DNA from: a virus | Direction: 5' to 3' (one strand) | Length of the DNA: 64,000 nt | IMG/VR virus record: IMGVR_UViG_3300047509_000156 | Location: 42,482-106,481 of that record | Notes under the pieces: generated by a model | Databases searched by the model: none | What the model was told of the DNA's origin: nothing | What the model saw: only the letters and a program-made list of their open reading frames with translations | In this document: positions 2,988 through 33,001 of the stretch, one piece after another | Layout of the letters: every line of letters starts with the position of its first letter | How positions within the stretch are numbered: position 1 is the stretch's first letter | Position numbers and translations under genes: made by a program

Positions 2988-3265
2988 GTCGTCCTCTCGG
3001 GGATTGCCGCGATGTCGAACTCGATGGGTTCGACTGGTTCTCCCTTGTCGTACCTGCTGATGAAATCCTGCAAGGCATCCGGTGTCAGGTGTCTTCCACC
3101 GCCAATACTGACGTGAAAGGGACTGACACTGACGTAGTTCGTCAGGAGCGGGTCGTACTGCTCGGGCCAGCCGAGTGTCCTGAGAATGCACAGCGACCCG
3201 GCGCACTTGCGGGCGTCGCTCCTGATGCCCCTGTCGATGTCTTCCTGCGTTATCTGGAATTTCAT
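2984..3265 (-). CDS. Hypothetical phage protein
   Basis: MKFQITQEDIDRG...FISRYDKGEPVEPIEF; GGAGA RBS. Confidence 0.7.
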   Translation of the reverse strand: MKFQITQEDIDRGIRSDARKCAGSLCILRTLGWPEQYDPLLTNYVSVSPFHVSIGGGRHLTPDALQDFISRYDKGEPVEPIEFDIAAIPERTT

Positions 3266-3627
3266 GGGTCTCTCCTTCCGAATGTCTGCTTGACCGCCTC
3301 AATGATGGCAGAAACGTCCTCTTCCGTGCCGCGTTTCTTCGTGATGGGCAGGAAATACTTACCGCTCGACGGCCACCACTGAAATATCTGCGCCGAGCCT
3401 TCGTAGAGACAGACGTGAGGAACTTTGGCCGGTTGAATCATACTGATGCGGACCTCGATCCCCAGTGGCGTCATGGCGTCTGTTAGTTGTCGTAGAATGT
3501 CGGCGTAGTCACCCGTATCATCGGTGCCGACGCCAGAGTGTTCGCCACCGCCCATTCCACGTTGGCGTGGTCTCCTTCGCCTGCCTCCTCTTGGCTGTGT
3601 CATGTCGTTCTCTGGCTCCTGTGACAC
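3262..3627 (-). CDS. Hypothetical protein
   Basis: ORF in a coupled chain; start uncertain. Confidence 0.5.
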   Translation of the reverse strand: MSQEPENDMTQPRGGRRRRPRQRGMGGGEHSGVGTDDTGDYADILRQLTDAMTPLGIEVRISMIQPAKVPHVCLYEGSAQIFQWWPSSGKYFLPITKKRGTEEDVSAIIEAVKQTFGRRDP

Positions 3628-3705
3628 GTTTTCGCTCGTCCACCACTCCTCTTCGCCCGCCTCGCGGATTCGGCAAGGCAGTGCGTTATCCTCGCAGTAC
3701 CACTT

Positions 3706-4035
3706 TCACACTGTCTCCAGCGGTGAAAGAAGCGGCATGTCGAGCGTGACGACGAGTTCTCCTGTTTCTAGAGCGTTCTCGAATCGCGCCGAATCGTACT
3801 CGTCGAGTTCGATACCGCACACCGTTCGCGCCTCGGCTGTCGGCAGGGGAATGTCTCTCACCTTGTAGCGTTTCTGCGACTCGATCACCTTCTCGCGTCT
3901 TCGCCTCAGTTCTCCCGTGACGAATCGTCGCAGATCGTCTTCGAGCCAGTCCTGCCGATCCAGCCAGTCTAGGTAGCCAATCGGGATATCACTCCACCGC
4001 TTCCCGACGTACTTCCCGAACGGCATGACTCGCAT
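3706..4035 (-). CDS. DUF3820-like protein
   Basis: MPFGKY.G...DIP..YL.WL motif. Confidence 0.7.
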   Translation of the reverse strand: MRVMPFGKYVGKRWSDIPIGYLDWLDRQDWLEDDLRRFVTGELRRRREKVIESQKRYKVRDIPLPTAEARTVCGIELDEYDSARFENALETGELVVTLDMPLLSPLETV

Positions 4036-25894: not shown

Positions 25895-28198
25895 CTAATC
25901 GGGGATTGGTTCGTCCGAGACGACGTAAACGTCTTCGTGTTGCGTTGGCGTACTGACCATTGACTGCGCCGCTCCCATAAGCGCCTTTTTGCGCTTGCCC
26001 TGCTGGGCAAGATGGTCCCAGCGCTCGCGGGGTAGGATGTTGTAGACGAGGGACAAATCAAGTCCGACAGCGTGCAGTTCATCCCTGTTTCTTGACTCGT
26101 TGATCCTTTTGAGACAATCGGCTTCAAAGACGGCAGGTTCCTTCCTGGCACCGATGACCAGGGAGGCGAGAAAACGCGACGATGCCTTGCTGGTGGCGAT
26201 GCCGAGATAGGCCATCAATTTGCATTGGCCGGGCGAAGGACCGCTCGCCTGCCAGGCATCCTCCTGAATGCCGCAGAGTGCAGCCACTCTGGCGGGGTCT
26301 GTCCGCAACCGCAAAAGTCCGATCATCCGGCCTGCCAATTTTCTGCTGGGCCGTGCCTCTAGTTTCATACCCAGCGAGTCGATGAATTTCATCTGACCAT
26401 CAGAGGCCAGGTTTGCCGGTGTTTCAAAAGGAGTGCTGTAGCCGATTTCGTTGACCGAGTAGCTGACCTCGGCGCCGGCACGGCTGCGCCGTTCAAACTC
26501 CTCGCGAGCCGCCTGTTCGGCTTCTTCGCGCTCAATACGGATACGCTCCTTGTCGACAGCATCCTGTCTCTTGGCCTCCTCGATGATTTCTTGAACGTCC
26601 ACAGAATCGTCCACGCCGGCAGCGGCGAGCAGCTTTTCCGCTTTCTCCTTGACCTCGTCCGGCAATCCCTCGGCGTAGATTTCAATGGTCGAAGCACAGT
26701 CGGCCAGGCCGGTTATGCCGACCAGATCGACGATGAGGGCGTTGGGCTTTTCGCTTGCCGCGATAGCCGCGCGCCGAGAGGTAGCGTCCGGGTACGTGTG
26801 TAGCTTCTTGGCGAGTGACCGCGCAGGTCGGCAGGCTCGTCCTTTCATTTGCTCGGCAAGAGAGGAGGCTTTTTTGCTGACGGGCCTGAGAACGGCGACA
26901 CAGGACACATCGGGGTCGTTGTAGCCCTCGCGACAAAGGCCGCAGACAGAGAGGAACTGAAACTGGCCGTTCTGGTGGCCTTCATAAACTTGCTTCCTCT
27001 CGTGGGGCGGCGAGGAGCCGTCGAGTTGTCGGGCGTTATCTCCCGACTTGGTGATACTTTCCTTTTCGATCATCTCGCCACACTTACAGACGGCGCCATC
27101 GCCGATCATGGCGGAGGGATACCATCGCGTCAGGCCACAGTCACAGCGAGCCTGGACGCGGGCGTTGATGTAGCGGGCGACGTTCTTCGACATTTCCACA
27201 CCGGGAGAAAAGATGAGCGTGCGCCGGTCTTCGACCAGATCGAGCAGCGGTTCCACCATTGCCGCCAGGTGTTCCTCCAGCGCTCTTTCCAGTGCCGCAT
27301 CGTCGTAGTCGCCATCAGTGCCAAAGAGTTCCGGGTTGCGAAAATCGACGCCGTCCACCTCGATGTAGCGCTGGATATAGGGCACAGCGTAGCCGTCCTT
27401 GACGGCACATCGTTTGACCGTACTGAAGAGGGGAAAGTCGATGGCGATGCCTGGGAATTGCTTGTGGCCGATGGACACTTGATCGAAGCGTTTGGGCGTT
27501 GCCGTCATGCCGAGGCGGCGATGGGAGGGGTTCTGGCTGAACCAGTCGGTAATGTGCCCCACCGAGGGTAATTTGTAGGCGTGCCGGTGTGCCTCGTCCC
27601 AGATGACCAGCCAGTCGAGTCGCCAGTCGAACTTATGCAGGCGGCTGACGATGTTGCCGCTCACTTCGGGCCGCTGCATCTTTTGCGTCATGTCTTCGAG
27701 GACGGCGGCGGTATCTCCTGCTTGCTCGATGTGCCGCAGATAGGTCTTGGCCATGCGTTTAGTCATGGCGCCAACCGAGGTGATGCCATACTTCGCCAAC
27801 TTGTCGAGTTGCTCTGGAGTGGGCGGTGATTCTCGCAAGAGGCTGGCGCGGCTGGCGACCACAATGCGCGGAACGTCGTCGTGGGGAACCTTTTCCGCCT
27901 CCATCTCGATGCCCGGCTCGATGCCGAGAAAGTCACGGATCTCCTGGGAAAACTGCCAGACAAGCTGTTTCTCGTAGGTGACGACGAAGATATGCGCCTT
28001 GTTGCTGCGGCGCATCCAGGTATCGCCAATGAGACAGGCGACGGGTGTTTTACCCGTGCCCGTGGCCATCCGCAACAGTACGCCTTCGATACCGCTGTCC
28101 CAGTGACGAAAAGCCACGTCGTGCGCTTCGGTCTGGTAGTCGCGCGGCGAGAGGCGAGTCGATTTGATGGACTTCTCAAACAGGTCTTGCTGTATCAC
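25895..28198 (-). CDS. SF2 (DEAH) helicase
   Basis: PRDYQ, ATGTGKT, DEAH, GMTAT, EGYNDP, QMKGR. Confidence 0.93.
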   Translation of the reverse strand: MIQQDLFEKSIKSTRLSPRDYQTEAHDVAFRHWDSGIEGVLLRMATGTGKTPVACLIGDTWMRRSNKAHIFVVTYEKQLVWQFSQEIRDFLGIEPGIEMEAEKVPHDDVPRIVVASRASLLRESPPTPEQLDKLAKYGITSVGAMTKRMAKTYLRHIEQAGDTAAVLEDMTQKMQRPEVSGNIVSRLHKFDWRLDWLVIWDEAHRHAYKLPSVGHITDWFSQNPSHRRLGMTATPKRFDQVSIGHKQFPGIAIDFPLFSTVKRCAVKDGYAVPYIQRYIEVDGVDFRNPELFGTDGDYDDAALERALEEHLAAMVEPLLDLVEDRRTLIFSPGVEMSKNVARYINARVQARCDCGLTRWYPSAMIGDGAVCKCGEMIEKESITKSGDNARQLDGSSPPHERKQVYEGHQNGQFQFLSVCGLCREGYNDPDVSCVAVLRPVSKKASSLAEQMKGRACRPARSLAKKLHTYPDATSRRAAIAASEKPNALIVDLVGITGLADCASTIEIYAEGLPDEVKEKAEKLLAAAGVDDSVDVQEIIEEAKRQDAVDKERIRIEREEAEQAAREEFERRSRAGAEVSYSVNEIGYSTPFETPANLASDGQMKFIDSLGMKLEARPSRKLAGRMIGLLRLRTDPARVAALCGIQEDAWQASGPSPGQCKLMAYLGIATSKASSRFLASLVIGARKEPAVFEADCLKRINESRNRDELHAVGLDLSLVYNILPRERWDHLAQQGKRKKALMGAAQSMVSTPTQHEDVYVVSDEPIPD

Positions 28199-29238
28199 TA
28201 TTTGACCCCCATCTGATCGTAGGCGTAGCGCGTGACGCGGCCCGTCTTGTGGCATTGCTTGCAGCCTTCTCCCCGGCAGAGAGGACAGGCACAGTGGCAC
28301 TTGGCCGAGCGCACTGTCTCACAGACCGACTTGAGTTTGTTGATGGCGCTCTTGCGGCGGTCCATGTCAAGGAGCCAGGGATCGTCCGGCATCGTCTCGG
28401 TGAACTTCATGAGTTGCCGGCACCACGACTCCAGTTTACTGTTGAGCCGCTTGATCTGTTGTTCGGTCGTTTCATCTTCGGGCGCTTCCGGCTCCTGGTT
28501 CAAGTCTTCATCAGTCTGCTCGGATAGCGTCTTGCTCTTTTTTTTGCCGCTGCCCTTGCCGAGATTGCGCTTCCTTGCCTTTTTACGCTTGTCTTCACAG
28601 GAGGCACAACCGACCACGACGCCGTTCTTCTTACACTGCGGGCAGAGGATCGGTTTCCCACCACCGGAAATCTGAGCAATCGTCTGCCCTGACTGGCCGT
28701 TGAGGATGACGGAACGGGCGCCATCGCCTTGCTCGGCAGCGGCAGCATCGACGCCGGCAGCGAACTGAGTGGCGTTCTTGACTGTGCGCTCAGAAACGCC
28801 GTGCTCTGAGGCCAGTTCTGCCGCCGTTTTATTTCCTCCCTGTTGGGGAGGAATCGGGCAAAATTTGCCCGATTCCTCCCCAACAGGTGCGCTATTGCTA
28901 CTGCGCGTAAGTTCTCTCTCCTTACCGAGATAGTACAATTTTTGCTCTGGAGTCGCGTTTCGCCTTCCGAACTGGTTTTGGATAATCCAGAGCAATGCCG
29001 CTTCGCGTGAAGGTAGCTCGATTTTCCTTGTAGGAATTTTGAGATGCTTTTCCTCTGCAATATCGAACCGCGTGTGCCCGTCGCCAAGAATCGGTTCGTC
29101 TTCTCCTGGCAGTTGAAGGAGGACAAGCGGGTCGATGTGCTGGCTCTTTTCGATCTCAGCTTCCAGGGTGCTGCGCTCCTCTTTGGTCAGGGCGGGGAGA
29201 TAGGACTTGAACTCCTGATCGATCTTGAAGGATTGCAT
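28198..29238 (-). CDS. ParB-like domain protein
   Basis: KID.EF...LP.LT.EE, DGHTR, NQFGRRN, HTH GVSERTV. Confidence 0.8.
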   Translation of the reverse strand: MQSFKIDQEFKSYLPALTKEERSTLEAEIEKSQHIDPLVLLQLPGEDEPILGDGHTRFDIAEEKHLKIPTRKIELPSREAALLWIIQNQFGRRNATPEQKLYYLGKERELTRSSNSAPVGEESGKFCPIPPQQGGNKTAAELASEHGVSERTVKNATQFAAGVDAAAAEQGDGARSVILNGQSGQTIAQISGGGKPILCPQCKKNGVVVGCASCEDKRKKARKRNLGKGSGKKKSKTLSEQTDEDLNQEPEAPEDETTEQQIKRLNSKLESWCRQLMKFTETMPDDPWLLDMDRRKSAINKLKSVCETVRSAKCHCACPLCRGEGCKQCHKTGRVTRYAYDQMGVK

Positions 29239-29279
29239 GTCTTGCCCTCGACTATATAAGCACGCTATCCTCCGGAAAA

Positions 29280-29396
29280 TCCCCTGGTCCGGCTGAAGAT
29301 GGCCGGGGAATAGCGTGTGGCTCAAGTTGTTCGGTTAGTGGCCCGGACCAGGGGTCACTGAGAAAGCAGTTTATCCAGAGGCGATGTATCCGTCAA
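29280..29396 (-). promoter_or_regulatory. Sigma70 promoter plus structured leader RNA, copy 1
   Basis: TTGACG-17-TAAACT, then CAGTGACCCCTGGTCCGGGCCACT... Confidence 0.65.
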
Positions 29397-29409
29397 CGAG
29401 AAAATCACG

Positions 29410-30396
29410 CTATTTCCCGGCCAGTGCAGGTACGCCAAGAATCTTTGTCTGCCAGGTTTCCCAGCACGTCATGAAGTGCGACAGATGATCGAGGCATGTG
29501 CGGTGTTCGAGGCTATTCTTCTCGTGCGGATAGGAGATAGTCAGTCCGTCTACCATGCCGACGAACTTGTCATACTCGGCCTTGACCGCCTTGAAATCGA
29601 ATAGGGGCTTGCCGTTGCGCTGGTGGCTTTCCTTATTGTCTTCAGGTTCGGAGTGGCCGTTCGTGGTGCCGTTGCGGGACGCCTTTCGCTTCTCGGCAGC
29701 GGCCTTCTTACGTGCTTCTTTGCACTTCTCGCAGTCCTTCACCTTGCCGACGCGCGTACATCGCTCGCAGTAGATCGTCGGTGTCTTGGTGGCGGACTGT
29801 GACCTGCCATCCCTGCCAGCGCGTGTCCTTGTGCCGCCTCCGGTGCCACGCTTTTTTCTGCCGCCGGGACCAGTATTTTTCTTTGAATCATCAGAATGTT
29901 CATCATCTTGTTCATGTTGAGTGGGAGAACTCCCACCTGACATCTCGGTGCGCTCTTTGCGCATCTCTCCAACAAGATGATTACTGACGCGGCATTGATC
30001 TGCGATCCATCGATCAGCCTTGCCGGACCACTCCGTATCGTCCAAAAGCGTGGCGACGGCGTTGCGGCGATCATCATAGGTTCGCCGCTTGCCGTGGGAG
30101 TCGTTGGCACCGCAGGCGTACAGGATCGCGTCCCTTACCGTTCCTTTCTTCACCGTGGCGTTGATTTTCTCCTTGCCGGCCCTCTTCGCGGCTGCCAGGC
30201 GAAAGTGCCCATCGGCGAGATATCGGCCTCCGTTGACGCCATCGCTCTCGAAAACGACGATGTCCGGCATGTCCTTGTCCATATTGGTGCGGTAGATTTC
30301 CGCGTACTCCTCGATGGTCGCCTCGTCCAGTTCGACGCGGATCTGCGTCCCCGCGTCGGTGATGATTGTGCTTACGTCAATAAATTCAGTTGCCAT
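29410..30396 (-). CDS. ParB-like domain protein
   Basis: GTQIR, LADGHFR..A, AN..HG..R...D.R.AV. Confidence 0.85.
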   Translation of the reverse strand: MATEFIDVSTIITDAGTQIRVELDEATIEEYAEIYRTNMDKDMPDIVVFESDGVNGGRYLADGHFRLAAAKRAGKEKINATVKKGTVRDAILYACGANDSHGKRRTYDDRRNAVATLLDDTEWSGKADRWIADQCRVSNHLVGEMRKERTEMSGGSSPTQHEQDDEHSDDSKKNTGPGGRKKRGTGGGTRTRAGRDGRSQSATKTPTIYCERCTRVGKVKDCEKCKEARKKAAAEKRKASRNGTTNGHSEPEDNKESHQRNGKPLFDFKAVKAEYDKFVGMVDGLTISYPHEKNSLEHRTCLDHLSHFMTCWETWQTKILGVPALAGK

Positions 30397-30419
30397 CCTG
30401 CCCTACGGAAAAAGGCGCG

Positions 30420-30549
30420 CCATCCCCGGAATTCACCTGGCTCGGCAAAAGAGTTGCCGGGGATCTGGTGCGTGGTTCGAGTTGATTCGGTAGTGGCCCG
30501 GTCCAGGTGTCACTGGTGCTGATCATAACCCTTGTTCGGTGGGAGTCAA
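30420..30549 (-). promoter_or_regulatory. Sigma70 promoter plus structured leader RNA, copy 2
   Basis: TTGACT-16-TATGAT, then CAGTGACACCTGGACCGGGCCACT... Confidence 0.65.
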
Positions 30550-30565
30550 GAAGATTTCTTCTCAT

Positions 30566-31825
30566 CGAATTGTCTCCAGGAAACCCCTAGCTTCAGCTAT
30601 GGGGAGGAATGGAGACGCCTTCGCCCCCATTCCCGACCTACCAACCTTGTTTCGGACGTTTTTCTTCCGTACAATAGGAGCATGAAACTGACCATTCAAC
30701 TCCAGTTGCTCCCGACACCCGAGCAAGCGGCCCTCTTGCTCGACACGATGGAGCGCGTCAACGAAGCCGCCACCTTCGCCGCCAGGCAGGGATTCGAGGC
30801 TGGAGTCTTTTCCCAACCCTCGATTCACAAACTGGCGTATCGCTCCATCAGGGATCGCTTCGGCCTGTCCGCCCAATTGGCCGTCCGCGCTATCGGCAAG
30901 GCGGTTGAGACGTTCCATCGCGACAAGACCATTTGCCCCGTCTTCAGGCCGCATGGGGCCATCACCTACGATCAGCGGAACCTGTCGTTCAAGGGACTCG
31001 ACAAGGTGAGCCTGGCAACGCTCACCGGCCGCGAGGTTGTCGCGCTGGTCTACGGCGAGTATCAGGCGGAGCGCTTTGACCGGATCAAGGGCCAGTGTGA
31101 TCTCGTCTACCGTGACGGCAAGTTTTTCCTGATGGCCACGGTGGAGTTGCCCGAGCCGCCGCCCGGCGAAGTCAAGGAGTTCCTGGGGATCGACCTTGGC
31201 ATCGTCAACATCGCCACCACGAGCGAGGGCGAGACGTTCAGCGGCGCGAACATCGACCGCAACCGCAAGCGCCGGGCCACCGCCCGCAAGCAGTATCAGC
31301 GAAAGGGGACGAAGAGCGCGAAGCGCAGATTGAAACGACTCGCGAAGTGCCAGGGGCGCTTTCAGAGGCATACCAACCACGAGATCAGTAAGCGACTCGT
31401 GGCAACGGCCAAGGCACTCGGTCTGGGGATCGCGATGGAGGACCTCACCCACATTCGCGGCAGAATCGAGCCAACAGTTTCGCGCCGGTTTCGACGAAGA
31501 TTCGGCAACTGGAGTTTCTCTCAACTCCGGGAATTTGTGAAGTATAAGGCATGTCTGGCAGGCGTACCGTTCGTGCTGGTGGACCCGCGCAACACCAGTC
31601 GGACTTGCTCGCAATGCGGATACTGCGACAAGGCCAACCGCAAGACTCAGGCTGAGTTCGTCTGCCTGCATTGCTCGTACTCCGCGAATGCCGACCGAAA
31701 CGCCGCCGAGAACATCTCTCGGCTTGGGCAAACCAGTAGACTTGCCCCAAAAGTAGCAGTCCTTGCGTCTTCTCTCAACGAAGGCTAGCTGCAAAGCCCC
31801 CGGCTTTAGCCGTGGGGATGTTTAC
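30566..31825 (+). mobile_element. Non-autonomous IS200/IS605-family element (tnpB only)
   Basis: Left hairpin CCCCTAGCTTCAGCTATGGGG and right hairpin CCCCGGCTTTAGCCGTGGGG; ends inferred as TCAT| and TTAC|. Confidence 0.85.
30682..31788 (+). CDS. tnpB: TnpB RNA-guided endonuclease
   Basis: RuvC GIDLG / MEDL / NADRNAA with D-E-D intact; Zn finger CSQC..CLHC. Confidence 0.95.
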   Translation: MKLTIQLQLLPTPEQAALLLDTMERVNEAATFAARQGFEAGVFSQPSIHKLAYRSIRDRFGLSAQLAVRAIGKAVETFHRDKTICPVFRPHGAITYDQRNLSFKGLDKVSLATLTGREVVALVYGEYQAERFDRIKGQCDLVYRDGKFFLMATVELPEPPPGEVKEFLGIDLGIVNIATTSEGETFSGANIDRNRKRRATARKQYQRKGTKSAKRRLKRLAKCQGRFQRHTNHEISKRLVATAKALGLGIAMEDLTHIRGRIEPTVSRRFRRRFGNWSFSQLREFVKYKACLAGVPFVLVDPRNTSRTCSQCGYCDKANRKTQAEFVCLHCSYSANADRNAAENISRLGQTSRLAPKVAVLASSLNEG

Positions 31826-32157
31826 CCACTCTCTTCCTCCCTCCTCTGTTCCTTCGTCTGCCGCTGGAGTCGCTTCACCTCTGCCTCCAGTACCTCGGGC
31901 GTCTGCTTCTCGCGGGCGGCGACGATGGCCCACAGTTGCTCGATGTGGACCTCGCCATTATGGATCAGGCGATGACACTGGCAGGCCCAGTCGGCGCCTA
32001 ACGCCATGAGGTTCCAGGGGTGGTCAATTCGCATCGCCCCGCCAGCGCCACGGCCCCTAACATGGTGCGGTTCGCGTTTCTTGCAGAAACGACGGCACAG
32101 CTCGCAAAATCCAGGCGTGCGAAAAAGTTCGAGCGTTGGCTCATCGATCAGTTTCAT
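31822..32157 (-). CDS. Small HNH-like protein
   Basis: CELC...HH...N..L...C.CH...H. Confidence 0.7.
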   Translation of the reverse strand: MKLIDEPTLELFRTPGFCELCRRFCKKREPHHVRGRGAGGAMRIDHPWNLMALGADWACQCHRLIHNGEVHIEQLWAIVAAREKQTPEVLEAEVKRLQRQTKEQRREEESG

Positions 32158-32357
32158 GCCTTTGCCTTGGCCCGCGCCAGCAGTTCGTTCTCCAGTGCCC
32201 GCTGTGCCTGGATGATACAGGTGTAAGCCTTGCACAGATTGCAGGTGCAGTCGGTGGCGTGCTTTTCAGTACCGATCCGCTTATCTTCGTGTATCCAGCC
32301 GCTCGCTGACTGGAGACACTCCCTGGCGTCATTAAGAGTAATGGCAGTAATCTTCAC
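32154..32357 (-). CDS. Hypothetical protein
   Basis: Coupled ORF. Confidence 0.5.
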   Translation of the reverse strand: MKITAITLNDARECLQSASGWIHEDKRIGTEKHATDCTCNLCKAYTCIIQAQRALENELLARAKAKA

Positions 32358-32359
32358 GC

Positions 32360-33001
32360 TTATCCCCCATACGTCTTGTTCGTCTCGTTAAAGACCCAAC
32401 CCTGGTTGGCGGCGTACTCGTTGATCATCTTCCAGACGATCTTCTTATCTTCCTTGGCCATGCCGGATAGCTGCTCCAGCTTGTCGTTGAAGTCGTCGCG
32501 CTTCGGTCCCAGGTGCAGATACTGCTCCCAATCGCGTACAGTTTGGCTGCGCGGGCAGGCCCAGTCCGGCAATGCTGGTTTTTTGACGAACTGGCGTTTC
32601 TGCGTGTCGTAGTCGCACCATTGCTTGGGCAGGTCGTACAAGTACCTGCCGATTCCCCACTTAACAGCCGTTCGCTTGATCGCGTCGGATACCGCTGCCT
32701 TCATCTTGTCGCCGCTATCTGGCTGTTCGCTTGGTCCGCCAACGTCCTGCTTGGGAATCCACTCGTCGCCGATCCGCAATGACAGGATACACTGTACGTT
32801 GCCATCGGAAAGAGCGGCGTACTCGTCCTTCCAGCCGTCGATCCCCATAACTTCGTCAAGTCTCTCCATGACGCATCTCGCGTCGATGTACGCGATGGCG
32901 AGGGCGCGGTTGCCGCTGACAGCCTGCGGCTTGAACGACACCTCGTCGATGGCGAACGGTTCTCGCAATTGACGAGCGATTAAGTCCGTTGGCTTGCTCA
33001 T
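32360..33001 (-). CDS. Rad52/Sak-like single-strand annealing protein
   Basis: AYIDAR.VMERLD, K.A.SDA.KR.AVKWGIGRYLY. Confidence 0.92.
   Translation of the reverse strand: MSKPTDLIARQLREPFAIDEVSFKPQAVSGNRALAIAYIDARCVMERLDEVMGIDGWKDEYAALSDGNVQCILSLRIGDEWIPKQDVGGPSEQPDSGDKMKAAVSDAIKRTAVKWGIGRYLYDLPKQWCDYDTQKRQFVKKPALPDWACPRSQTVRDWEQYLHLGPKRDDFNDKLEQLSGMAKEDKKIVWKMINEYAANQGWVFNETNKTYGG

Follow-up and report, generated by a model that had tools for sequence, protein, structure and literature searches.

The C4 RNAs of phages P1 and P7 and the CI RNA of P4 are antisense RNAs that are processed, act in trans and have repeated target sites, and the mRNA leader of T4 gene 32 carries a 5' pseudoknot, adjoining an unstructured tract, that serves as a translational operator. 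The put RNAs of phage HK022 bring about factor-independent read-through of distant terminators by way of the zinc-binding domain of RNA polymerase beta-prime. They are outlined as about 70 nt long, folded into two adjacent stem-loops and working in cis on the RNA as it is being transcribed (PMC9378689). Furthermore, stable RNA structure just upstream of a terminator is summarized as generally suppressing termination without sequence overlap (bioRxiv 10.64898/2026.06.17.733018).

The locus described here lies in a 64-kb window (the whole stretch of viral DNA that was analysed). Judged from its sequence, it is best read as encoding an undescribed cis-acting 5' RNA, transcribed from host-type promoters, before two tandem early phage genes, and it resembles each of the known systems in part: i) Like C4 and CI, a segment of the phage leader would pair with other segments of the same operon RNA and so control downstream expression; in contrast to them, the leaders have no C4-type match in Rfam, the genome holds no segment complementary or similar to them beyond chance length apart from the two leaders themselves and one upstream segment (B0, below), and each copy pairs better with itself, in cis, than with the other. 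A preliminary description of this DNA proposed a likeness to P4 CI and P1 C4, for which no evidence was found; ii) Like the gene 32 leader, they would place a pseudoknot (here a predicted one) at the 5' end of phage DNA-metabolism mRNAs, beside an unstructured tract, but their stems are much longer, they end in a terminator-like tail, and RNA binding by ParB-like proteins is only hypothetical; iii) Like putL and putR, described as two related structured RNAs per genome directly downstream of host-polymerase promoters (PMC9378689), they occur as two copies after early promoters (predicted sites in this case). Unlike put, which as described has no terminator of its own, each is about 100 nt long and, rather than two adjacent stem-loops in about 70 nt, contains a pair of interleaved helices, of which one resembles a terminator; the leaders showed no similarity to put RNA in sequence or in Rfam; iv) As in tug-of-war antitermination (bioRxiv 10.64898/2026.06.17.733018), one helix (A:A') would form before the 3' strand of the terminator and shares no bases with it; here, however, one competing strand sits in the terminator loop and the other at the transcript 5' end, the hairpin loop is atypically large, and there is no known ligand or aptamer.

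Two leader copies with conservation from the predicted transcript start

The genes, leaders and promoter-like sites are arranged as follows:

30522..30549, minus strand: copy 2 (gene A) promoter-like site, TTGACT-16-TATGAT, 10/12 consensus matches
30397..30515, minus strand: leader copy 2 (119 nt), running from the predicted start of transcription up to the base ahead of the gene A ATG (30396); 124 bits to covariance model R1
29410..30396, minus strand: gene A (P0001, 328 aa), with a ParB-like N-terminal domain, an HTH and a CxxC zinc-ribbon region; PHROG 1033, E=8e-16
29368..29396, minus strand: copy 1 (gene B) promoter-like site, TTGACG-17-TAAACT
29239..29360, minus strand: leader copy 1 (122 nt), running from the predicted start of transcription up to the base ahead of the gene B ATG (29238); 136.5 bits to covariance model R1
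28198..29238, minus strand: gene B (P0002, 346 aa), with a DGHTR motif, an HTH and two CxxC zinc-ribbon motifs

Relatives of gene A carry PF02195. Gene B matched nothing in Pfam, PHROGs or NCBIfam and bears a weak colinear resemblance to gene A (hhalign E=0.096); of the initial view that both genes are ParB-like, the part on gene A therefore stands, while ParB-likeness of gene B is weakly supported. The downstream genes, a helicase and others, all point in one direction. Because no terminator was found after gene A, copy 1 would also be carried inside a longer read-through transcript.

The duplicated leader reported ahead of both genes was recovered as two minus-strand copies, unique in the window and the genome: the pattern CAGTGACNCCTGGNCCGGGCCACTA has exact matches at 29336-29360 and 30491-30515 as its sole occurrences in the whole window (0 expected, from 100 shuffles), and neither BLAST nor a covariance model detected a third copy in the complete 106,481-bp phage genome. 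The sigma70-type promoters said to precede the conserved blocks by 6-7 nt were likewise located, the block beginning 7 nt past the -10 hexamer in copy 1 and 6 nt past it in copy 2; two such promoter-like sites fall in 2 kb, against 0.5 expected. The transcription start sites at both leaders are predicted positions.

From 5' to 3', each leader consists of stem A, a conserved single-stranded tract (ACCGAACAAC), stem B, a short loop, A' and B', and 3' of B' come a pyrimidine/U-rich tail, a ribosome-binding site and the start codon. The two copies are 30% identical across the promoter spacer, 89% over the first 18 transcribed nt, 76% within loop L1 and 36% from B' to the start codon; drift has brought the flanks, promoter spacer included, down to 30-42% identity, with the leader core still at 76-89%. 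The gene A and gene B proteins are almost unalignable. Conservation that starts at the predicted transcript start, together with proteins that barely align, points to selection on the leader itself.

The element was also described as unrecognised, and the Rfam search agreed: Rfam 15, including C4 antisense RNA, riboswitches and phage leaders, gave 0 matches at gathering thresholds over the whole 64-kb window. At E<=10, positions 28900-30900 and a region of another viral contig (L007:2600-3100) returned chance-level eukaryotic or irrelevant families only, the best chance score being 20.6 bits against cut-offs of 32-80.

Two predicted interleaved helices in each leader

The paired and unpaired elements of the two copies are:

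30498..30509, minus strand: copy 2 stem A, 5' strand CACCTGGACCGG, 10/12 complementary to 30434-30445
30481..30490, minus strand: copy 2 unpaired conserved motif CCGAATCAAC, in loop L1
30457..30472, minus strand: copy 2 stem B, 5' strand CGCACCAGATCCCCGG
30434..30445, minus strand: copy 2 stem A' (partner of A), inside the B:B' loop
30416..30429, minus strand: copy 2 stem B' CCGGGGATGGCGCG, then CCTTTTTCC
29343..29354, minus strand: copy 1 stem A, 5' strand CCCCTGGTCCGG, 12/12 complementary to 29281-29292
29326..29336, minus strand: copy 1 unpaired conserved motif AACCGAACAAC, identical in the L007 homolog
29303..29317, minus strand: copy 1 stem B, 5' strand CACGCTATTCCCCGG
29281..29292, minus strand: copy 1 stem A' CCGGACCAGGGG, inside the B:B' loop
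29261..29275, minus strand: copy 1 stem B' CCGGAGGATAGCGTG, then CTTATATAG

The pairing of the 5' segment with a downstream segment, with a compensatory change between copies, had been noticed in the preliminary description and is present in both. In copy 1, CCCCTGGTCCGG forms 12 Watson-Crick pairs with CCGGACCAGGGG; in copy 2, CACCTGG/CCAGGTG gives 7 pairs, followed by a 2x2 internal loop and 3 pairs, with a compensatory C-G to A-U change and two disrupted pairs beyond what had been described. As for the idea that this segment alternates between a 5' hairpin and the downstream pairing, competing pairings are indeed available in the leaders, but the only 5' hairpin (AGUG..CACU) is absent from L007.

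Moreover, a second helix, B:B', had been missed. It is interleaved with A:A' (strand order A..B..A'..B') and takes the form of a GC-rich hairpin of 12-16 bp, whose loop of 27-35 nt holds A' and which is followed by a pyrimidine/U-rich tract. The transcript 5' end (stem A, which begins 0-7 nt from the predicted start site in all three leaders, L007 included) is thus predicted to pair with the loop of a terminator-like hairpin.

Several lines of evidence bear on these helices: i) Three pairs are altered on both sides between the copies; ii) Pairing cells amount to 88.5% between copies and to 28-46% when partners are slid by 1-3 columns; iii) The summed length of the interleaved stems is 22 in copy 1 and 22 in L007, which 0/1000 dinucleotide shuffles reach in either case; iv) Copy 2 has degraded stems, which taken alone are not significant (143/1000 shuffles). 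The two crossing helices of an H-type pseudoknot are therefore supported by the shuffles, by the three compensatory pairs and by the retention of B:B' in L007, and A:A' and B:B' may coexist as a pseudoknot, with stems of 10-15 bp and an L3 of 4-12 nt, or instead be kinetic alternatives. Other measures are less distinctive. Nested minimum-free-energy (MFE) z-scores of the leaders, at -0.4 to -0.9, do not stand out; the fold of the antisense strand is at least as good and wobble versus A-C counts are 3 vs 2, neither of which assigns the strand; and crossing 8-bp stems arise by chance in 35 of 81 GC-rich upstream control regions. With three instances from two phages, the covariation evidence is suggestive and thin.

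Terminator likeness, predicted folding order and a possible second partner for stem B

On its 3' side, B:B' is followed by C or CC, then UUAUAUAGU, UUUUU or UUUCUUCUCU. Typical intrinsic terminator loops are far smaller than 27-35 nt, and a terminator consensus scan that allows loops of 3-8 nt calls none of these hairpins. The U-run does not adjoin the stem directly but follows one or two C residues, and the copy 1 tail is only weakly U-rich.

In predicted folds of the nascent RNA up to B', the MFE structure is A:A' in 3/3 leaders. When the full leader is folded with the helices taken as exclusive, B:B' is favoured by 3-9 kcal/mol. The gap between the end of A:A' and B' downstream of it is 4-12 nt. 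Because A and A' share no bases with B and B' in any of the three leaders, a switch of the classical type, with overlapping terminator and antiterminator, was rejected.

Copy 1 has a further competitor for stem B:

29406..29420, minus strand: B0, CCGGGAAATAGCGTG, which overlaps the stop codon of gene A and lies upstream of the promoter of copy 1; 14/15 Watson-Crick pairs with copy 1 stem B

B0 is single-copy, is identical to B' at 12/15 positions, and competes directly for stem B at copy 1 only. The MFE fold of the read-through RNA uses B0:B (-69.7 kcal/mol, vs -59.2 kcal/mol with B:B' forced), and this predicted competition suggests that formation of B:B' matters.

A homolog in a second phage

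L007 is a syntenic locus on another viral contig, with a ParB-like gene (38% identity) followed by a ResIII helicase. Its leader keeps the order of elements, an identical AACCGAACAAC motif and a U-rich tail, while its stem sequences are unrelated. The preliminary description had suggested building a covariance model from the two copies; run on those two sequences only, the model recovers L007 as its best sense-strand non-self match (16.1 bits, E about 0.04 in 90 kb), with B:B' retained. The model-guided alignment, which leans towards the model, gives 12 standard pairs for B:B' in L007, several positions with three pair types, and an aligned tail; in a plain three-way MAFFT alignment, on the other hand, the L007 stems are out of column register with those of the window. 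Column-wise covariation was counted between the two copies of the window and on the model-guided alignment only. As a separate observation, the L007 leader fills a divergent intergenic region beside an 82-aa gene that looks by eye like a small regulator and has no family match.

Searches for further members added none. Exact leader-motif scans of viral, metagenome and genome contigs returned only L007 again, plus chance matches mostly in coding sequence; 80 ParB-like loci on viral contigs had no leader-like sequence upstream (motif, BLAST and inspection); protein searches with the gene B product and the L007 protein found no leader-bearing relative; and GenBank phages gave no DNA match and distant ParB-like proteins only. 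The known leaders are thus three instances in two phages, a tiny family.

A candidate attenuator

The element is probably a functional structured leader RNA of some kind, and its most likely role would be to dose expression of gene A and gene B. We tentatively propose a conditional attenuator as the specific form, a reading that is possible but that we would not put at even chances. The switch or attenuator suggested in the preliminary description is supported in part: the 5' UTR location, the compensatory changes, the competing pairings and the L007 architecture agree with it, but A:A' and B:B' share no bases.

In the proposed attenuator, A:A' would be the first helix to form during transcription and, lying 4-12 nt upstream of B', would hinder closure of B:B' without sharing bases with it. 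The balance between the two would set the number of polymerases that continue into the gene, and a factor reading the strongly conserved first ~43 nt may shift it. At copy 1, B0 would capture stem B on RNA arriving from upstream, and read-through RNA bearing B0 would escape the block faced by RNA from gene B's own promoter. What the analysis establishes is the sequence architecture, how it is conserved and the statistics of its base pairing, while the start of transcription, its termination and any regulator are inferred.

A wider generalization is that phages possess an undescribed device in which base pairing between the very 5' end of a transcript and a terminator hairpin's loop tunes RNA polymerase stopping without shared bases and sorts RNA by promoter of origin (B0 read-through escaping, local RNA attenuated); we regard this as unlikely on present evidence. 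If the attenuator model holds, i) the leader would represent a new architecture by which phage early genes set termination or the fate of their mRNA; ii) control would come from topology (5' end to terminator loop) rather than from overlapping alternative helices; iii) different treatment of read-through and locally initiated transcripts would be built in; and iv) phage ParB-like, helicase and recombinase modules would gain a layer of control by RNA. If the model fails, the leader is still a well-delimited conserved non-coding element of a rare phage lineage, and so tiny a family limits its practical weight.

Alternative explanations

An unlikely competitor is a device for translation or mRNA stability, in which the 5' end, paired into the hairpin loop, would shield the mRNA from 5'-end-dependent decay, the tail or 5' tract would pair with the Shine-Dalgarno (SD) sequence and thereby set translation, and a ParB-like protein might bind the conserved single-stranded tract, much as gp32 binds its own pseudoknotted leader. 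Stem A at the extreme 5' end in 3/3 leaders fits such a role, as do the pyrimidine-rich tail with no clean U-run and the presence of copy 1 within a longer read-through transcript. Moreover, the tail or GCCACUA pairs with the SD region in 3/3 predicted folds (CUCUC/GGGAG in L007, CCUU/AGGG in copy 2 and GCC..CU/AG..GGC in copy 1). These SD pairings, however, span just 4-7 bp, wobbles included, vary from one leader to the next and lack covariation support; the competition of B0 for stem B is more easily read as terminator control; and no RNA-binding domain was recognised in the gene A or gene B protein.

Control at the DNA level, which we consider quite improbable, would treat the inverted repeats and the conserved +1 to +43 tract as operators bound by a repressor, perhaps the ParB-like/HTH proteins regulating their own promoters, or as the place where a Q-type factor loads; co-variation of the stems would then reflect half-sites of a dimeric protein. 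It would account for the greatest conservation being in the unpaired/5' tract and not in the stems, and for an imperfect palindrome, AGTGRC-N11-GYCACT, that is found genome-wide only at these two promoters but is missing from L007. HTH-like segments in both gene products, a near-copy of the motif (CCGAACAAG) within the copy 2 promoter spacer, the possible small-regulator gene next to the divergent L007 leader, and wobble-pair strand counts (3 vs 2) that favour neither strand are also consistent with it. On the other hand, known operators look different from arms of 10-15 bp that are set ~45-60 bp apart and cross another pair; both arms have changed jointly at three positions in one phage, which a shared repressor would not need; and conservation sets in at the transcript start and does not extend across the promoter.

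Processive antitermination of the put/nut kind, by which the leader, alone or with a phage factor, would make RNA polymerase ignore terminators across the replication/recombination operon, is very unlikely. Its appeal lies in two similar copies per phage just past host-type promoters, as described for HK022 putL/putR (PMC9378689), in the strongly conserved promoter-proximal RNA and in downstream genes, helicase and others, that run in one direction; yet put consists of two adjacent stem-loops, whereas the leaders have interleaved helices and L007 does not keep the 5' hairpin, no boxA- or boxB-like element was recognised in the leaders, and each copy stands directly before one gene with its own terminator-like hairpin, needless for put.

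Least probable of all is a relic of a duplicated or recombined promoter cassette with no present function and stems that are incidental GC-rich inverted repeats, for although chance crossing stems are frequent (35/81), the copy 2 stems are degraded, B0 may itself be a relic of a further partial copy (12/15 identical to B') and the family is extremely rare, the leader core stands at 76-89% identity amid flanks drifted to 30-42%, 0/1000 shuffles match the stems of copy 1 or L007, and the architecture persists at 38% protein identity with every stem sequence replaced.

Other features of the locus

Three further candidates were rejected. A leader peptide is contradicted by short GTG/ATG frames that differ in length between leaders and are absent from L007. 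A general operator role of CCGAACAAC was set aside, its remaining occurrences in the genome being in coding sequence. A connection with the TnpB element next to the locus was also dismissed, since the leader is not part of that element, whose only effect is to displace the native upstream sequence of copy 2.

The two leader copies and their genes

The leader feature is real and conserved. In all likelihood it is a structured leader RNA that regulates in cis and has a new architecture, for which we infer a mechanism. The source record is a complete 106,481-bp IMG/VR phage genome with direct terminal repeats (G+C 58.7%). The window covers its bases 42482-106481, and both leaders and their genes occupy the window's minus strand:

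25895-28300, ResIII/DEAD helicase, next after gene B
28198-29238, minus strand, gene B (P0002, 346 aa), with a DGHTR motif, an HTH-like segment and two CxxC motifs
29239-29360, minus strand, leader copy 1
29410-30396, minus strand, gene A (P0001, 328 aa), PHROG 1033 'ParB-like partition protein', E=8e-16
30397-30515, minus strand, leader copy 2
32360-33001, Rad52-like annealase, upstream of the leader genes

The preliminary description had called both genes ParB-like; this stands for gene A, whose protein has relatives with PF02195. For gene B the likeness is weak: profile searches gave no significant family match, and its profile aligned colinearly but weakly with that of the gene A family (hhalign E=0.096).

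A 25-nt pattern common to both leaders matched the window exactly twice (29336-29360 and 30491-30515; 0 expected), and promoter-like sites end 7 nt (copy 1) and 6 nt (copy 2) before the conserved block, bearing out the earlier claim of two leaders 6-7 nt after promoter-like sites. Across the whole genome, BLAST and a covariance model found no further copy. Identity between the copies was strongly non-uniform along the region.

Segment-wise identity between leader copies 1 and 2
Upstream of -35: 42%
-35 hexamer: 5/6
Spacer and -10: 30%
First 18 transcribed nt: 89%
Next 25 nt (L1): 76%
Paired segments: 45-75%
Last 25 nt before the start codon: 36%

Because this profile is non-uniform and the sole stretch common to the gene A and gene B proteins is a 25-residue zinc ribbon, recent duplication cannot account for the leader similarity, and the constraint acts on the transcribed leader itself. 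The leaders encode no conserved leader peptide. The copy 2 promoter spacer (30531-30539, minus strand) contains CCGAACAAG, a near-repeat of the leader motif CCGAACAAC, ~50 nt upstream of the variant form that the leader itself carries; the resemblance may be chance, or the repeat may mark a DNA site. A general operator role for CCGAACAAC was rejected, as the motif has no general distribution at promoters.

Two crossing helices

The pairing noticed earlier (A:A') is intact in copy 1 (12/12 Watson-Crick pairs) and interrupted in copy 2 (7 pairs, a 2x2 internal loop, 3 pairs). In addition, a second helix, B:B', was detected in both copies: CACGCTATTCCCCGG (29317-29303) with CCGGAGGATAGCGTG (29275-29261) in copy 1 (13 Watson-Crick pairs, one G-U, one C-A), and CGCACCAGATCCCCGG with CCGGGGATGGCGCG in copy 2 (13 Watson-Crick pairs, a 2-nt bulge, one A-C). 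With the strands arranged as A, L1, B, L2, A', L3, B', the two helices cross, and A' falls within the 27-nt loop of B:B'. Stem A covers +7 to +18 of the predicted transcript. After B' come C or CC and then a U- or pyrimidine-rich run; the ribosome-binding site lies 20-22 nt further on.

A third leader (locus L007) lies on a viral contig of 20,667 bp (IMGVR_UViG_3300031857_001697, identical to Ga0315909_10003069). Its promoter-like site ends at 2874, upstream of a ParB-like gene that is followed by a ResIII helicase:

2880-2889, stem A, CGCCAACCGC
between A and B, motif AACCGAACAAC, identical to that of copy 1
2903-2914, stem B, CCCCCGGCGTCT
between B and A', CATCTTC, as in copy 1
2924-2933, stem A', GCGGTTGGCG
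2946-2957, stem B', AGGCGTCGGGGG
after B', tail CCTTTCTTCTCTCC, then GGGAG and a GTG start

The order of elements is that of the window leaders, and the stem sequences are unrelated. The distance from the end of A:A' to B' is 4-5 nt in the window copies and 12 nt in L007. After viral, metagenome and genome collections were scanned by pattern, the family stands at three members in two uncultured phages. The Rfam search gave no match, in keeping with the preliminary view of an unrecognised RNA, and a limited literature search found no published description of the element.

The single L007 protein (2989-3927) joins a gene A-like ParB N-domain (38% identity over residues 3-164) to a C-terminal double CxxC zinc ribbon resembling those of gene B; this C-terminus is common to P0004 and P0011. 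This combination suggests that genes A and B belong to a single ParB-N/zinc-ribbon family, either as paralogs that have diverged or as products of domain shuffling. Divergent from the leader region, on the locus minus strand, an 82-aa gene (2613-2861) has an N-terminus resembling by eye a small ribbon-helix-helix regulator, with no family match.

Structural statistics and covariation

Crossing 8-bp stems occurred in 35 of 81 GC-rich upstream control regions and are thus common by chance; in this comparison, both stems reached at least 10 bp in L007 only. In both copy 1 and L007 the best crossing stems had a summed length of 22, a value that 0/1000 dinucleotide shuffles of each attained; in copy 2 the sum was 15, attained by 143/1000. 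Nested MFE z-scores were unremarkable, as expected if the informative helices cross.

Between copies 1 and 2, 88.5% of cells pair, versus 28-46% with slid partners, and three pairs are altered on both sides, upholding the compensatory change first described; the shuffle control on this covariation (57/500) has little power with two sequences. A covariance model of the two window copies, as the preliminary description had proposed, here with B:B' only (R1), ranked L007 first among its sense-strand non-training matches, with 16.1 bits and an E-value of about 0.04 over 90 kb (filters off), and no other site scored in the window or genome. The model-guided alignment, which leans towards the model, gave L007 B:B' 12 standard pairs and several columns with three pair types; plain MAFFT placed the L007 stems out of register with those of the window. 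Predicted folding of the antisense strand equals or exceeds that of the sense, and wobble counts do not discriminate between the two; 5' UTR position and the conservation boundary at the predicted start site point to sense RNA.

Candidate mechanisms

For RNA up to B', the MFE structure was A:A' in all three leaders (-30.8, -23.9 and -21.4 kcal/mol); with B' added and the helices treated as exclusive, the B:B' state was lower by 3-9 kcal/mol. Together, B:B' and its tail resemble a terminator whose loop is oversized. A preprint (bioRxiv 10.64898/2026.06.17.733018) reports that stable structures placed shortly before a terminator generally suppress termination, with no need for shared sequence. 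We tentatively favour a conditional attenuator, because A:A' is predicted to fold before B' is made, B:B' and the tail are terminator-like, and A:A' lies close upstream of B'. On this reading, base-pairing between the 5' end and the terminator loop would work against hairpin closure, and a factor could act on the first 43 nt, which are highly conserved.

B0, a third copy of the B' strand that stands by itself, is a single instance, with no equivalent at copy 2 or L007:

29420-29406, minus strand, B0, CCGGGAAATAGCGTG, covering the stop codon of gene A and lying upstream of the copy 1 promoter

B0 is complementary to copy 1 stem B at 14/15 positions, better than B', and when RNA that runs in from gene A was folded, B was predicted to pair with B0 (-69.7 versus -59.2 kcal/mol with B:B' forced). 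Given this fold and the lack of a terminator in the gene A-gene B interval, read-through RNA from gene A would bypass the hairpin, while locally started RNA would form it, a model that fits the attenuator reading.

Protection of the 5' end and the weak Shine-Dalgarno pairings in 3/3 folds would suit a translation or stability device, which we consider unlikely. Somewhat more doubtful is that the region consists of DNA operators. The palindrome AGTGRC-N11-GYCACT lies at +2 to +24 of both leaders, with no other site in the genome, and is missing from L007. A put-like processive antiterminator (PMC9378689) is improbable, and a functionless relic the least likely of these, because the conservation profile and shuffle tests oppose it.

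A tnpB element and a palindrome near the leaders

30682-31788, IS605-type tnpB (PF07282 and PF01385), just upstream of the gene A promoter

The tnpB element spans 30566-31825, borders with which the junction sequence, read directly, is consistent. The insertion falls where an HNH-like gene (31822-32235, PHROG 740) ends, 13 nt ahead of the gene A promoter -35, and replaces the native sequence upstream of leader copy 2. Inside gene B, a perfect 49-bp palindrome (28839-28887; arms of 24 nt, 1 nt between) adds an in-frame segment (..APVGEESGKFCPIPPQQGG..) to the protein, which separates its ParB-like part from the HTH. The stretch GGGGAGGAAT in the palindrome's arm recurs at the left end of the tnpB element, which is rich in hairpins (~30598-30612). 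The palindrome may thus have arisen by in-frame insertion of a palindromic mini-element.
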